Shown here in pieces: positions 7,361 to 42,275 of a stretch of DNA of 50,481 nucleotides. The stretch lies in NCBI GenBank assembly GCA_040882355.1, contig JBBEBM010000004.1, forward strand, positions 62,001-112,481. The letters run 5' to 3'. The notes beneath the pieces were generated by a model. That model had not been told where the DNA came from. It saw nothing but the letters and a program-made list of their open reading frames with translations, and searched no databases. The position numbers and the translations under genes were made by a program. The stretch is from Dehalococcoidia bacterium. GTDB taxonomy: Bacteria > Chloroflexota > Dehalococcoidia > DSTF01 > RBG-16-68-14. Each line of letters begins with the position of its first letter. Within the stretch, counting starts at the first letter, position 1.

Positions 7361-7652
7361 CGGTTCCCTCCTTCGGGCGGTCGCCGCAGGGATGTATCCC
7401 GCTGACGCTGGGCGTCAAGGCCATTCGTCCGCCATCAGCTACTGGATACACTAAGTATAGTTTCATAGGCAAGTCCCGTTCTGTGAGCTACTTCACACAA
7501 CGAGTGGAAGGTCGCGTACTTTGCGTTGCTGTCGAGGCGCGCCCTTCTTGATCTTGCGTCGTCGGGCCGGGTAGTGTGGGTGCGTCCAGGCGCCTTGGGT
7601 GAGGCGCAGCGAACCTATGGGTTGGGGCGGCGATTTCACGAAGGAGGAAGTC

Positions 7653-7868
7653 GTGGCAGAGAGCGTATACAAGGTCATCGAGCTTGTGGGGACCAGCACG
7701 GATTCTTGGGAGAAGGCGGCAGCTGCCGCGGTCGAGCGGGCTGCTGCCTCACTGCGTGACCTGCGCATCGCCGAGGTCGTCGAGCTTGATATGCAGCTCG
7801 ACGGCGGCAAAGTGCTGGCCTATCGAGCCAAGGTAAAGCTGTCGTTCAAGTACGAGGGCGGGGACTAG
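7653..7868 (+). CDS. Dodecin (flavin-binding protein)
   Basis: GTG after AGGAGG; SVYKVIELVGTS...YRAKVKLSFKYE. Confidence 0.93.
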   Translation: MAESVYKVIELVGTSTDSWEKAAAAAVERAAASLRDLRIAEVVELDMQLDGGKVLAYRAKVKLSFKYEGGD

Positions 7869-7902
7869 GTCCGGAGCGCAGCGAGCTCCCGCCGGCCGTT
7901 CT

Positions 7903-7931
7903 GGCTGTGCCGGCCACAGGCCGGCACAGCC
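7903..7931. terminator. Perfect 13-bp hairpin between convergent genes
   Basis: GGCTGTGCCGGCC-ACA-GGCCGGCACAGCC; no U tract. Confidence 0.5.
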
Positions 7932-8009
7932 TCCTATCGCGTTGCCCACCGGGCGCCCTTCGTTGGTCCTCCGTCCGCCTGGTGCAGAGCCGCCCTGCCG
8001 TCGAGCCGC

Positions 8010-8221
8010 ACGGCCCTGCCCCGACTTTGAGTTGTCGTTCGCGGCGGATGGCGTCGGAACGGGTTGGGAGGGGCCCCTGATGAACGAGCTGCCACGGGCC
8101 ACGGCTTCTCGTCCAGCGGGAGAGGCCCTCTTGGTGTTCGGCGAGGCGGCGTTCGATGTCGTTTGGTGGAGCCGGTGTACAATCTGCCTGCAGAGTTCTG
8201 AAGTACGTAGACGTAGTACAT
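8010..8221 (-). pseudogene. Small GIY-YIG nuclease with two +1 frameshifts
   Basis: MYYVYVLQNSAGRLYTGST / NDIERRLAEHQEGLSRWTRSRGPWQLV...AIRRERQL / KSGQGR over three frames; extra A near 8162 and 8027. 3' end approximate. Confidence 0.85.
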
Positions 8222-8261
8222 AGCGTGGACCCTGATTCCAGGGGCGGTTCGCTGCCGTGAG

Positions 8262-8355
8262 TAGGAGCTACAACCTGGCCGTCACCCGCCTGCCGGTGAG
8301 CCGCCCTACCGTCAGAGTGTGCTTTGGCTCCCCGGGCAGTCCGCCTGCGGCGGAC
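8262..8355 (-). pseudogene. Degenerate tRNA-Asn-derived sequences with inserted hairpins
   Basis: CTACAACCT (8268-8276) equals 42225-42233; CCGCCCTACC vs tRNA CCGCTCTACC; TTGGCTCCCCGGGCAG next to GTCCGCC-TGC-GGCGGAC. Confidence 0.65.
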
Positions 8356-8409
8356 CCTCTCTATCGATGCGCGGTCCACTGCAGGCGGTGTCGCTTTGGC
8401 TCCCCGGGC
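8321..8409. repeat. Two att-like copies of the tRNA-Asn 3' end
   Basis: GCTTTGGCTCCCCGGGC at 8321-8337 and 8393-8409; 16 bp and 14 bp identity to 42200-42215. Confidence 0.85.
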
Positions 8410-8568
8410 GGGTAGCGAACGCTACGCTACAATTGCTAGGAGCGAAGACGGCAACTCTCACGCTCACGAAGTAGCGCTCACACCCCTATGGCCTGGGCCA
8501 CCCGCCGCCAGCTGCGGGCCTCTTGGGCTCGTCCGCACCCGGCTAATCTGACATCGCTCGCACCGCGG

Positions 8569-9385
8569 CTAGGCCTGGCCGCGTGGGTGCTCCTCGCCGG
8601 GGGGCAGCGCCCCCGCATCCGATGGCTCATCACGGGGGAGTTGGGGGGCAGGCTGCGTCCAGGGCTTGATGTCCTGCACCACTTCTCGATAGAAGCGATC
8701 CACGAGGGACGAGAGGTCACCCATGAAGCTGCCCTCTCCGGACTTGCGCTCGGCGCCAACGCTCTTCGCCAGAGTCAGTCTGAACGACTTGGGCTGACGA
8801 TTTGCGCCCAACAGTATGCGCCTAGGGTCTTGGATGACGTTGCTGAGAAGCTCGGACGATGTATCTCGTGCCCAGAGGAACGCTACGTCCATCCGAAGAT
8901 CCCCGGGAGCATTCTTCAGTTTTCTGAGAAGCCAAATGAGCCGCGCGCTCGGTCGCTGTACATCAGGGGCCGAGACATCTATCGATGCCTCGGCGGTCAT
9001 CGTGCGCAGGTTGGCCCTTAGAAGAAGAGGCGCTACTGCATGGGGAATCCTCATGGCCGCGGACATGGCTCCTTCGTCAACGAGTTCACGTACTGTCGCG
9101 TTAATTCGAGAGCCCGGGTTCTCGACCTCTGAGCGACTGAGCACCGGGCGCACCTCGCGGCCCAGACGAGCGGCCAATCGAAGACACAAGAATTGAACGA
9201 GCTGATCCCAACGACCGGCAACGCCCCGTACACCTTCGTCAGAAAGACGGAGGGTCATGTCTTTGGCGGCATTGCGGATCGTCGGCCAGTGCATGCCCAT
9301 GTCCTCGAAGGACAGGGCGCCGGACCCTTCGTACTCCAGGTAGCGAATGAGCTCGCCCAGGATCCATGCCTGGTCGCTGTCGGCA
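8569..9385 (-). pseudogene. C-terminal part of a conserved 'stress response protein'-type hypothetical; N-terminus lost
   Basis: DQAWILGELIRYLE...FEDMG...WLLRKLKNAP...FYREVVQDIKPW matches a family I recall from Actinobacteria; resemblance stops near 9385 with no start codon. Confidence 0.65.
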
Positions 9386-10237: not shown

Positions 10238-10810
10238 GGCGCCGCCGCCGTCTCGGCTGGCGGTCTCCACATGTGCGCCCTCACGAACGCCGGAGGCGTC
10301 AAGTGCTGGGGCGCCAACAACTTCGGCCAGCTCGGCGATGGAACCATCGCGAACCGCAGCATCCCGGTGGACCTCGGCGAAAAGGGCCACCTGCCCACGC
10401 CGACGGTCACGCGCACGCCCACGGTCACTCGTACCCCGACGCGGACGAGCACCAGGACGCCCACGCCTACGCGCACCCCCACGCCTACTCGCACGCCGAC
10501 GCCCACGCCTACCGTGCTCGGCGGCGGAACCCAGCGCCTTGAGGGCACGACGTCTCAAGGTCAGCCCATCTATCTGGACGTCGCCTTGGACGGCACCCGC
10601 GTCTTCCTCTTCCATTTCCGCTGGACCTGCGACACCAGCACGGTCCAGGGCGACTTCACCGGCCAGTACCCGGTCACCGCAGGCGCCTTCGAGCGTCACC
10701 TGTCCGGCGCCTTCGACACCGACATCCAGGGCACGATCGGGCCGGGCAAGACCGCGCAAGGGACCGTACGCAATCACGAGGAGGCCCACGACCACTACGA
10801 GCCAGCGTAG
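10238..10810 (+). pseudogene. Fragment of RCC1-repeat surface protein with Pro/Thr linker
   Basis: [33 protein letters not shown] is one RCC1 repeat; no signal peptide or further repeats. Confidence 0.75.
10394..10513 (+). repeat. Coding tandem repeat (TPTxTR linker)
   Basis: Degenerate 18-bp units such as CCCACGCCTACGCGCACC. Confidence 0.8.
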
Positions 10811-23966: not shown

Positions 23967-24419
23967 GTGGTACTCGAAGCGCCAGCCCGACCGAGCCTGA
24001 ACGGCCACCACGAGGTGCCGGTGCGCCGCGTCGCGCTCGTTGCGAGGGTGAGCACCGACCGCCAGGCGGCCAACCCGGAAGGCTCCCTCACGACCCAGCT
24101 CCAGCGGCTGCGCCAGCACATCGAGTACAAGTGCTCGGTGGCCGGCGAAGAGTGGCGGGAAGTGGAGGTCTACGAGCTACGGGCGGTGTCAGGCAAGGAC
24201 TCGATGCGGAGCGACGAGTACGAGGAGCTGTTCGCCGTCATCAGGGCCGGGCGCGTCAACACGATCTTGTGTACGGCGCTCGAACGGCTCTGCCGGTCGG
24301 TGAAGGACTTCCTCCACTTCGTCGAGTTCATCAACGAGCACGGGGCGGAGTTCGTCTGCCTGAAGCAAGCCTACGACACGACCACGCCGCAGGGGCGGCT
24401 CACTTCAGGTGAAGGGTAG
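23967..24419 (+). pseudogene. Serine recombinase catalytic domain, truncated
   Basis: VARVSTDRQ, SGK, ERLCRS, YDTTTPQGRL then early stop. Confidence 0.88.
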
Positions 24420-40959: not shown

Positions 40960-41398
40960 TCAAGCGGTTGTTCTGACCTCTCCGAGGGAGTCGTCCCTGG
41001 GCTCGCTCGACGTTCGGGCTGCCGAAGCGGCCTCGTATGCAGCCATGAAGGCTTGGACGACCTCCGGATCAAATTGCCCACCGCTGTTTCGGAGAATTTC
41101 CCCCCTCGCGACCTCGGGAGGCAGTGCCTTTCGATAGGGACGGTCGTTAGTCATCGCAAAGAACGAATCAATGACGGCGATGATTCGAGCTGCCAGGGGT
41201 ATTTCCGCACCAGCCAGGCCACGAGGATAGCCCTTGCCGTCGTAGCGTTCATGGTGGGCATGGACGATAGAGGCAACCTCAGAGAGCGAGGGTATCGCTC
41301 GGAGCTTCTCGTACCCGATTCGCGAGTGTTGCTTCAATGCTTCCCACTCTTCGCGTGTCAAGGCCCCTGGTTTCGTTCTAATGGATTCTGGAACATCG
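40960..41398 (-). pseudogene. HD-GYP C-terminal fragment
   Basis: HHERYDGKGYP, DRPYRKA; HD motif missing at recombinase junction. Confidence 0.85.
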
Positions 41399-42235
41399 CT
41401 CACAAACGTCACATATGCAGGCAAGGTCGCGTATCGTCGGCGGCACGGTGGAGGCGTCGTTGCTCAGGGAGAACATCCACCTGTTGTCGATCGCGACACG
41501 TTCGAGACAGTGCAGCGGATGCTTGTAGACAGGCGTCGCAGTCGTCGCACTCCTCGACGCCCGTTCGGCCGAGAACCGTACGCACCCTCTGGGATAGCGC
41601 TGTGTGCTTCGTGTGCTGCACCGTTTCTCGGTTCCGCGACTACAGTCGCCGGCAAGTACCGGTACCGTCACATGCGTTGCTCGACAGCACAACGCCTCGG
41701 CAAAAGCGCGTGTCGCCAGCCTATGGTGCGAGCCGAACTGCTAGAGGGCCAGATCGGAGCCTACGTGAGCGACTTGAGACTGCCACGAGAATCGCTGGAA
41801 GACGTGGTGGCGGAGCTGAAGCGACGCCGCAATGGCGCCGGCGACCAAGCAGAGATCCAAAGTCTCGAACGGGAGATCGATCGATGGCGCAGGCTCTTTG
41901 TCCTTGACGAAATCGAAGAGCCGCGCTACTTGAACGAGGTGAAGCCACTGCGGGCTCGGCTCGGCGCGCTTCAAGAGCCAAGAGACCTGCTGGACCTAGA
42001 TCGTGTGGTAGAATACCTGCATGACGTGGGAAGCCTCTGGTTGGATAGTCCACGTGGTTTGCAGCGCGAGTTCGTGCGAGAGGTGTTCCAGCGGATCGTC
42101 GTGGACGGGAAAGAAGTTGTGACCATAACGCCGAAAGCTTCCTACGCGCCTCTCTTCGTCGTCGACCGGCACGAGCGCTTCGGCGGTGATTTCTGTAGAT
42201 TGGCTCCCCGGGCAGGACTCGAACCTACAACCTAG
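41399..42235 (+). pseudogene. Large serine recombinase C-terminal half
   Basis: NVTYAGKV, GEHPPVVD, SGIALCASC...MRCS...C zinc ribbon, coiled coil; stop inside tRNA; no catalytic domain. Confidence 0.9.
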
Positions 42236-42275
42236 CGGTTAACAGCCGCCCGCTCTACCATTGAGCTACCGGGGA
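42201..42275 (-). tRNA. tRNA-Asn (GUU)
   Basis: TCCCCGGTAGCTCAATGGTAGAGCGGGCGGCTGTTAACCGCTAGGTTGTAGGTTCGAGTCCTGCCCGGGGAGCCA; cloverleaf, encoded CCA. Confidence 0.97.

Follow-up and report, generated by a model that had tools for sequence, protein, structure and literature searches.

SegB, a free-standing GIY-YIG homing endonuclease from the tRNA gene cluster of T4/T6 phages, cuts within tRNA genes at the motif RAWTSGAAC (PMC13096335). Together with the Ssn nucleases it is the nearest published analogue of the element described here, a cassette made of a small GIY-YIG nuclease gene and hairpin-substituted partial copies of a neighbouring tRNA (hereafter mimics), of which we found a decayed member in a 50,481-nt stretch of a Dehalococcoidia bacterium genome (GenBank assembly GCA_040882355.1, contig JBBEBM010000004.1, positions 62,001–112,481; this whole stretch is called the window). 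By our own reading, the SegB motif is the T loop read on the other strand. The segB gene co-localises with tRNAs in phages, its product has a C-terminal part, and SegB breaks followed by homologous recombination give rise to tandem tRNA-segB repeats through homology that the 5′ end of the tRNA shares with segB's 3′ end (PMC13096335). Several of these features recur in the cassettes: GIY-YIG genes lodged among tRNA genes, inserts in the T loop of several mimics, an open reading frame (ORF) that runs with its 3′ end into a tRNA piece, and arrays of mimics in tandem. In contrast, SegB belongs to phage genomes, and the available text of its description mentions no hairpin-substituted tRNA copies (PMC13096335), whereas the cassettes lie in bacterial chromosomes and encode a bare catalytic domain of 80–95 residues.

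The Ssn family (cd10448) comprises single-domain GIY-YIG single-strand nucleases of 94 residues that occur with NTS/SRM hairpin repeats (Chenal et al. 2025, PMC11893778). Ssn binds the hairpin in single-stranded DNA and cuts just upstream of it, with no action on RNA (PMC11893778). Like Ssn, the cassettes combine a GIY-YIG protein of about 90 residues with flanking hairpin repeats that are also dispersed, and hairpin and nuclease variants are matched. Unlike those of Ssn, their hairpins lie inside partial tRNA copies, their genes sit inside tRNA operons, and the word tRNA does not occur in the main text of the Ssn paper (PMC11893778). The SRM motif was found neither in window positions 7801–8500 nor in nine cassette loci (0 matches). 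Elsewhere in the window's own genome, this motif has 37 matches compared with 9 in a reversed-sequence control, none of them at the cassette.

REP/RAYT and IS200/IS605 are hairpin-directed single-strand DNA elements with a small nuclease gene and cognate palindromes spread in the genome, and the cassettes likewise place a small nuclease gene between cognate palindromes. These elements use HUH/Y1 transposases with covalent intermediates, unlike GIY-YIG enzymes, and a GIY-YIG hydrolase is not known to rejoin DNA by itself. Both groups are mentioned in the Discussion of the Ssn paper (PMC11893778).

Fragments of prokaryotic tRNAs have been ascribed solely to integration events and CRISPR activity (PMC9897764). 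In islands at tRNA 3′ ends and in cis-mobilisable elements, an intact and a partial tRNA copy bracket the insert (PMC9897764), as they do a 34-kb interval in the window. The cassette differs in being about 100 times smaller, in having no recombinase and in that its tRNA copies are remodelled by hairpins. Full-text literature searches, the supplements of the key papers aside, returned no description of small GIY-YIG genes flanked by hairpin-substituted tRNA copies. The cassettes lack one defining property of each analogue, a DNA-binding domain in the case of SegB and a fit to the SRM motif in the case of Ssn. The family is real and widespread, apparently undescribed, and has similar cassettes in other phyla; its member in the window is dead.

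A decayed cassette in the window

The cassette remnant at 7968–8364 (all cassette coordinates are positions in the window, and the unit reads on the minus strand) consists of a broken GIY-YIG gene and three defective copies of tRNA-Asn in which GC hairpins stand in for tRNA arms. The source of these copies, the intact tRNA-Asn(GTT) at 42201–42275 on the minus strand, was the only tRNA that ARAGORN called in the window; the mimics were not called. An earlier note on this DNA had described five pieces at this position, and all five are present on the minus strand.

One of these copies, the short mimic (8325–8364), has three parts, namely a D-arm piece (8355–8364), the perfect hairpin TCCGCC-GCA-GGCGGA (8340–8354) and, immediately after the hairpin, 15 nt that repeat the 3′ end of tRNA-Asn exactly (8325–8339). 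The hairpin-interrupted tRNA 3′ end that the note had seen is therefore real. When we searched the window with all k-mers of tRNA-Asn, this was the sole 15-mer to occur elsewhere, and besides it and a 13-mer at 8397–8409 no match of at least 12 nt was found. The same three-part layout occurs in a relative, G007 (G codes denote genomes, G000 being the window's own, and L codes denote loci). A decayed, inverted second copy of the hairpin (8373–8388, minus strand) pairs with 8341–8356. This inverted repeat surfaced in an Rfam scan of 7400–9000, in which even E-values up to 10 gave no tRNA (RF00005) and just chance microRNA-like matches on the repeat.

Mimic 1 (8268–8310, minus strand) is longer and decayed. 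It runs from a D-arm piece through the hairpin TCACC-GGCAGGCG-GGTGA, which occupies the place of the 5′ half of the anticodon arm, to a variable/T-stem piece, AGGTTGTAG. We scored similarity to tRNA-Asn over 2008 tiles of 100 nt on both strands, and the top three tiles all fell at 8251–8450 on the minus strand (scores 33, 30 and 30; mean 15.1, standard deviation 2.8). By itself, mimic 1 scored 28, a value equalled by seven tiles elsewhere and thus within chance. The note's description of a tRNA body with a replaced anticodon arm would accordingly not stand on this alignment alone. It is backed by homologous copies in relatives, where the architecture is intact in G012 and G001 and where the hairpin loop of G001 is the identical GGCAGGCG. 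A D-arm copy at the end of the gene, as noted earlier, corresponds to the strongly decayed mimic 2 (7968–8005, minus strand), which overlaps the 3′ end of the nuclease frame. Its score against tRNA-Asn was at chance level (16). Aligned to mimic 1 it scored 38, above the maximum of 34 among 1000 shuffles (18.4 ± 3.4), and a real direct repeat therefore brackets the nuclease gene.

The nuclease gene itself (7975–8221, minus strand; 85 codons) is a frameshifted, dead relic with its ATG at 8221; the earlier note had allowed for this in proposing to repair the ORF. It is split over two frames, 8162–8221 (residues 1–20) and from 8160 downward, with the change, taken from the assembled sequence, at about 8160–8164; its normal stop is lost. 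Both pieces match Pfam GIY-YIG and tile the family alignment without overlap, the frame shifting after residue 20, and the residues of the catalytic motifs remain legible. The nearest protein was found in G007 (60% identity over 45 residues), and a 46-residue piece had homologues in 18 of 30 relatives. At the DNA level, a search of these 30 relatives with 7400–8480 matched the dodecin gene alone and gave no counterpart of the cassette. This dodecin gene (7599–7868, plus strand; Pfam) converges on the cassette, and a GC-rich, perfect, terminator-like hairpin between the two (7903–7931) is probably not part of the cassette. An MMPL transporter gene also lies beyond the cassette.

Intact cassettes in relatives

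A profile built from 14 intact proteins was searched against 201 genomes of the class, 95 of which had a match at an E-value up to 1e-8. We annotated 29 new loci from this search and pooled them with the earlier loci of relatives, separating close homologues (profile score of at least 85 bits) from another small GIY-YIG type (below 72 bits); L064, at 81 bits, was placed in neither group. A tRNA gene was located within 500 nt of 36 of the 37 close homologues, compared with 2 of the 21 genes of the other type. The nuclease lay on the strand of the tRNA in every such case (36/36 and 2/2). Among the close homologues, part of the adjacent tRNA recurred on the same strand within 400 nt in 34 of 36 cassettes, and 31 of the 36 contained a segment 100% identical to that tRNA. 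As a control, only 2 of the 43 tRNAs in the window's own genome had a partial copy within 800 nt. A scan of homologue flanks for tRNA fragments and GC hairpins, which the earlier note had proposed as a check, thus gave a positive result, including an enrichment of GC hairpins (see below). The lone close homologue without a near tRNA, in G007, is flanked by Asn mimics and lies 4.3 kb from the tRNA. No partial tRNA copy was found in L045 and L058. In L045 (G006:C18), a 'tRNA-Phe' directly after the nuclease gene is 100% identical to the upstream tRNA-Ile over positions 43–75 and probably represents a chimeric mimic that was annotated as a tRNA in error.

The association extends to more than 10 tRNA types. 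ARAGORN called tRNA genes in 14 of the 19 loci fetched from relatives, and BLAST of each tRNA against its own locus revealed, for Asn, Arg, Val, Ala, Ser and Ile, exact partial copies of the adjacent tRNA beyond the nuclease gene. The intact tRNA stands upstream of the nuclease gene in 24 cassettes and downstream in 12. Units measure 0.3–0.4 kb; the nuclease ORF is their sole gene, no recombinase is present, and hairpins interrupt the repeats. The arrangement is exemplified by G021, where tRNA-Asn is followed after 13 nt by the ORF (L047:1435-1701, 89 residues), which terminates at the TAA in the anticodon loop of the mimic, and then by tRNA positions 17–28, the hairpin TCCGCC-CGA-GGCGGA and positions 35–76; three tandem 103-nt units (positions 1–28, hairpin, positions 35–47) lie upstream. 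In G003, tRNA-Arg, a 10-nt spacer and the ORF precede two mimics with the hairpin as in G021, one of them with an extra insert in the T loop. G007 carries an array of Asn mimics with the hairpin once or twice in each, including a short form like window positions 8325–8364. Within genus g2, the Asn cassette is present in G012 only, while the mimic of G001 is unaccompanied by a nuclease gene. In the intact relatives the ORF terminates within a mimic such as mimic 2.

Beyond the class, named genomes scanned with a single protein yielded 58 loci, 17 of which had a tRNA within 500 nt, always on the same strand (17/17); partial tRNA copies were present at 12 loci.

Mimics without a nuclease also occur in the window's own genome, downstream of tRNA-Arg(GCG) (G000:C18:36540-36692) and tRNA-Ser(GCT) (G000:C77:40400-40547). 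They are partial tRNA copies with GC hairpins at the position of the anticodon arm and/or the T loop, and the T-loop insert of the Ser mimic nearly equals one in the tRNA-Arg mimic of G003. The same genome further contains a 90-nt tRNA with a four-base anticodon (ctcg), to which ARAGORN assigned no amino acid (G000:C78:28124-28213).

The intact proteins have 80–95 residues in a single domain, and all 14 aligned sequences match Pfam GIY-YIG. Y5, Y15, H29, R60 and E61 are invariant in this alignment and R25 is near-invariant; the catalytic Tyr, Tyr, Arg, His and Glu of Seg-type homing endonucleases are thus also conserved here. By sequence, the closest solved structures are the UPF0213 proteins 1zg2 (E-value 6e-17) and 1ywl, followed by Slx1. 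There were weak matches to PHROG homing-endonuclease families, and the sole NCBIfam match, to TIGR01453 (group I intron endonuclease), was below its cut-off. In SegB, the C-terminal part binds DNA. The cassette proteins, in contrast, finish 10–25 residues past the catalytic core and have no separate DNA-binding domain after it. The second small GIY-YIG type is represented in the window's own genome by three genes on contig C35 (L002, L004 and L007), one intact and two damaged, which share a C-terminal peptide ending in DSSLRSE. Their flanks have repeat-derived peptide motifs and show no cassette-like tRNA adjacency, one of the genes being 1.4 kb from a tRNA-Val.

In 31 of the 37 cassettes, the ORF is adjoined by a perfect hairpin with a stem of at least 6 bp. 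This hairpin invariably occupies the flank opposite the intact tRNA, that is, at the stop codon when the tRNA is upstream and just before the start codon when it is downstream. The density of perfect hairpins was 5.6 per kb near cassettes and 3.0 per kb farther off, compared with 2.4 and 2.45 per kb, respectively, around the other GIY-YIG type. Stems differ between nuclease clades (TCCTTCC, TCCGCC or TCCCGAC for Asn, TCCCGA for Val-CAC, GTCGCC for Ile/Ala, CCCGCC for Ser), yet pairing is always kept. In the Asn cassettes whose flanks we read, stem changes are paired substitutions and the left junction is constant after tRNA position 28, whereas the right junction falls at position 35, 45 or 62, as deletions would give. 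In several other lineages the hairpin substitutes the entire anticodon arm, with breaks at 26/27 and 43/44, and further inserts divide the T loop of mimics. We dropped a local fold-back of the tRNA-Asn anticodon stem (GGCGG) as the origin of the hairpin, because tRNA-Arg and tRNA-Val mimics hold the same hairpin and other Asn cassettes use TCCTTCC.

The hairpins also lie scattered through the genome. In the window's own genome, TCCGCC-N3-GGCGGA has 28 copies and ranks second among all hairpins of the 6-3-6 form, and the GTCGCC hairpin has 32 copies; stems with the same G+C average 2.3. A composite dispersed repeat in this genome has an outer 10-bp stem, GGACAGAGCT / AGCTCTGTCC, around two adjacent inner hairpins, TCCGCC-N3-GGCGGA and CCCGCC-N3/4-GGCGGG (examples at G000:C13:33023, C29:101324, C67:18221, C29:939 and C73:51518).

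The interval between the cassette and tRNA-Asn

The cassette and tRNA-Asn are now separated by about 34 kb (8410–42200), an interval that has the tRNA at one edge and a copy of the tRNA 3′ end at the other and is best read as an inserted tRNA-integrating island that is now immobile. Its tRNA-proximal end carries the C-terminal remnant of a large serine recombinase (41246–42235, plus strand, a stop-to-stop frame; Pfam Recombinase and Zn_ribbon_recom on 41381–42235), the last codons of which run antisense through the 3′ part of tRNA-Asn. No N-terminal catalytic domain was found in this remnant. At the right end (8397–8432, minus strand), an attR-like sequence consists of a pseudo T arm and an exact 13-nt copy of the tRNA-Asn 3′ end (8397–8409). 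This second 3′-end copy was not mentioned in the earlier note and belongs to the island. In G018, a stretch that lies 17.6 kb downstream of tRNA-Asn matches positions 8387–8432 (38 of 46 nt identical, 83%), and the DNA just past tRNA-Asn in the window also follows tRNA-Asn in G018, G003 and G011. The G+C content is 0.64–0.66 within the island and 0.68–0.72 outside. In this lineage tRNA-Asn is a hot spot for islands, with partial copies 32.7 kb away in G019 and 17.6 kb away in G018. The island ends support the idea, already put forward in the note, that the cassette formerly lay directly downstream of tRNA-Asn.

The island encodes metabolic enzymes (acetate kinase, transaldolase, glucokinase, phosphoketolase and trehalose synthase), a PilZ-linked glycosyltransferase, WS/DGAT, ArsA, GGDEF and HD-GYP proteins, and an ABC transporter for branched-chain amino acids whose two binding-protein genes lie in tandem (repeat 29945–30244/31235–31534, 82% identical). 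A second, small resolvase gene is located at 23967–24419. At 10394–10513, periodic repeats of 18 and 24 nt (five copies, 69–71% alike) lie in overlapping long frames without a Pfam match. In G021, a 112-codon frame (L047:1097-1432) that resembles the gene ends which other relatives carry downstream of tRNA-Asn enters the 3′ part of the mimic. Islands may have used the spare tRNA copy as a landing site too, because this frame reads into the mimic rather than the real tRNA.

Possible origin and mobility of the cassettes

To what extent nuclease relationships follow tRNA identity was evident from the trees. In a 36-protein tree, the tRNA label changed 12 times (the minimum being 10), compared with a mean of 23.8 after shuffling, and on a 51-row tree with 15 proteins from other phyla added it changed 22 times (shuffled mean 34.1); none of 200 shuffles was as low in either case. 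Presence and absence at one site, a property of Seg-type homing endonucleases, was also observed. Within one genus, G021 is filled at tRNA-Asn, while G028 and G017 are empty, with tRNA-Gln and tRNA-Asn and nothing added. The tRNA positions 35–76 of G028 plus the downstream flank match the 3′ part of the G021 mimic plus its flank at 89.9%, so the original flank continues from the mimic and not from the intact tRNA. The extra DNA in G021 is one discrete unit, in which a fresh 3′ part of the tRNA is joined by the ORF, a piece of D arm and the hairpin. Such a unit would fit a break at positions 29–34 repaired from a filled copy, and would equally fit the single-crossover integration of a mimic-bearing circle.

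We favour, with a probability of roughly 60%, the reading that the cassette family is selfish and homing-like and is expressed from the tRNA promoter, the window copy being dead. In this scheme the nuclease would be expressed by read-through within the tRNA transcription unit, because the spacers of 10–13 nt are too short for a promoter. It would cut a cassette-free tRNA gene, or single-stranded DNA beside the cognate hairpin, and repair from a cassette-bearing copy would leave one intact tRNA and a hairpin-substituted spare without the target. Through such breaks and recombination the cassettes could spread or persist. That the nuclease recognises the tRNA gene or its own hairpin is probable. 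More specific versions are tentative, and we hold each of the two to be rather doubtful: the target might be the very stretch of the tRNA gene for which the hairpin is substituted, or, by analogy with Ssn, the enzyme might bind the hairpin in single-stranded DNA and cut beside it. Sequencing runs of RNA had no bearing on expression. In each of 22 runs, no more than one tenth of the words sampled from the G021 cassette was present, and in four runs the contigs covered only tRNA-like parts, at 90–99% likeness, and came from other organisms.

For the window, this scheme suggests a succession of events. The cassette, an 85-codon GIY-YIG gene co-oriented with tRNA-Asn and set between partial copies of it, each with a GC hairpin in place of part of the anticodon arm or T arm, would originally have stood directly downstream of the tRNA. 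A serine-recombinase island of about 34 kb would later have entered the tRNA 3′ end and moved the cassette off its tRNA. The nuclease frame and the mimics then decayed, possibly owing to the loss of the tRNA promoter. This remnant, detached and with both gene and mimics decayed, fits the last stage of a homing cycle, in contrast to the 31 of 36 intact cassettes that keep a 100%-identical tRNA segment. The compact selfish element proposed in the earlier note is thus well supported as a cassette tied to tRNA genes, and its selfish, mobile nature is plausible from the clades that track tRNA identity and from the filled and empty sites. The interpretation given in the note is in this sense supported in part; its proposals that the nuclease targets tRNA genes and that the hairpins mark or protect the element's own copies are conjectural.

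Several observations weigh against a homing origin. Its main difficulty is that an intact, presumably cleavable tRNA persists beside the nuclease gene in every cassette. Long vertical residence at one locus would be expected to cluster nucleases by tRNA equally well, and the Asn cassettes from Lentisphaerota and Acidobacteriota group in a separate clade (support 96) rather than nesting in the Dehalococcoidia-like Asn clade. The pair of filled and empty sites gives no direction, because recombination between direct repeats would also yield an empty site. In the other phyla, 41 of the 58 loci had no tRNA within 500 nt, most of them actinobacterial matches over residues 1–65 only. Furthermore, the window's own genome (a 94%-complete assembly) yielded no intact close homologue and yet 28 copies of the hairpin, so that hairpins may exist independently of the nuclease. 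Finally, a former adjacency of dodecin and tRNA-Asn is not confirmed by synteny, as none of the dodecin loci of 14 relatives had a tRNA-Asn within 1.5 kb.

Among the competing explanations, the one that survives best, unlikely as we consider it, is a hairpin-nuclease system like Ssn, in which the substrates would be dispersed hairpin repeats in single-stranded DNA, tRNA operons would serve only for strong expression, and the insertion of hairpins and recombination between them would have produced the broken tRNA copies as a side effect. The proteins are single domains of 80–95 residues, like SsnA (PMC11893778), nuclease clade and hairpin family go together, and hairpins both flank the genes and are far over-represented genome-wide (28 and 32 copies against a mean of 2.3). 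An insert common to the T loops of the tRNA-Ser mimic in the window's own genome and the tRNA-Arg mimic of G003 also points this way. Such a system would leave unexplained why copies of the neighbouring tRNA occur in 34 of 36 cassettes and why clades track tRNAs; moreover, the published SRM motif is absent from all nine cassette loci tested and from the window, and tRNAs are not named in the main text of the Ssn paper (PMC11893778).

That the mimics are functional RNAs, transcribed as tRNA-like decoys, processing signals or guides acting with the nuclease, is considerably less probable. The location of cassettes inside the transcription units of tRNAs, with the strand of the tRNA shared in 36 of 36 cases, would suit this idea, as would the co-varying hairpin stems and the replacement of whole arms at the arm boundaries 26/27 and 43/44 in several lineages. 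Most mimics, however, lack the acceptor strand and could form no cloverleaf, those in the window were rejected by both Rfam and ARAGORN, and the variable right junction of the hairpin (35, 45 or 62) fits deletion products better than a selected RNA. We found no support for the suggestion in the earlier note that the mimics act as RNA guides, given a protein of just 80–95 residues and the reported lack of action of SsnA on RNA (PMC11893778).

Least probable is that the partial copies are old att sites of tRNA-Asn islands and the nuclease a leftover passenger, for although tRNA-Asn is an island hot spot with partial copies at a distance in G019 and G018, the window copy at 8397–8409 is truly an island end and tRNA fragments have been traced to integration in print (PMC9897764), such debris would not account for units of 0.3–0.4 kb without a recombinase, internal substitution of the copies by hairpins, 5′ tRNA parts upstream of the nuclease, as in the 12 of 37 cassettes with a downstream intact tRNA, or a pattern repeated at more than 10 tRNA types.

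Returning to the homing-like reading, a more far-reaching form of it, which we would put slightly below even odds, is that the cassettes are undescribed minimal mobile elements of 0.3–0.4 kb, each a bare GIY-YIG domain with its cognate hairpin, that home into tRNA genes across many bacterial phyla. Nuclease-triggered recombination would restore a functional tRNA and leave an arm-substituted copy that is immune to cutting and forms the end of the element, and the hairpins found genome-wide would be footprints of this process. If this is true, the tRNA genes of many bacteria would host the smallest nuclease-based selfish elements known. These elements would remodel tRNA loci and leave pseudo-tRNAs that confuse annotation, and they may seed genome-wide hairpin repeats. 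They would also provide very small sequence- or structure-specific nucleases whose natural targets are revealed by the flanking DNA, making their specificity directly testable, and might be of use as tools, as the authors propose for Ssn (PMC11893778). The copy in the window would be a dated fossil of the end of the cycle, its gene and mimics having decayed together once the island had severed the cassette from its tRNA.

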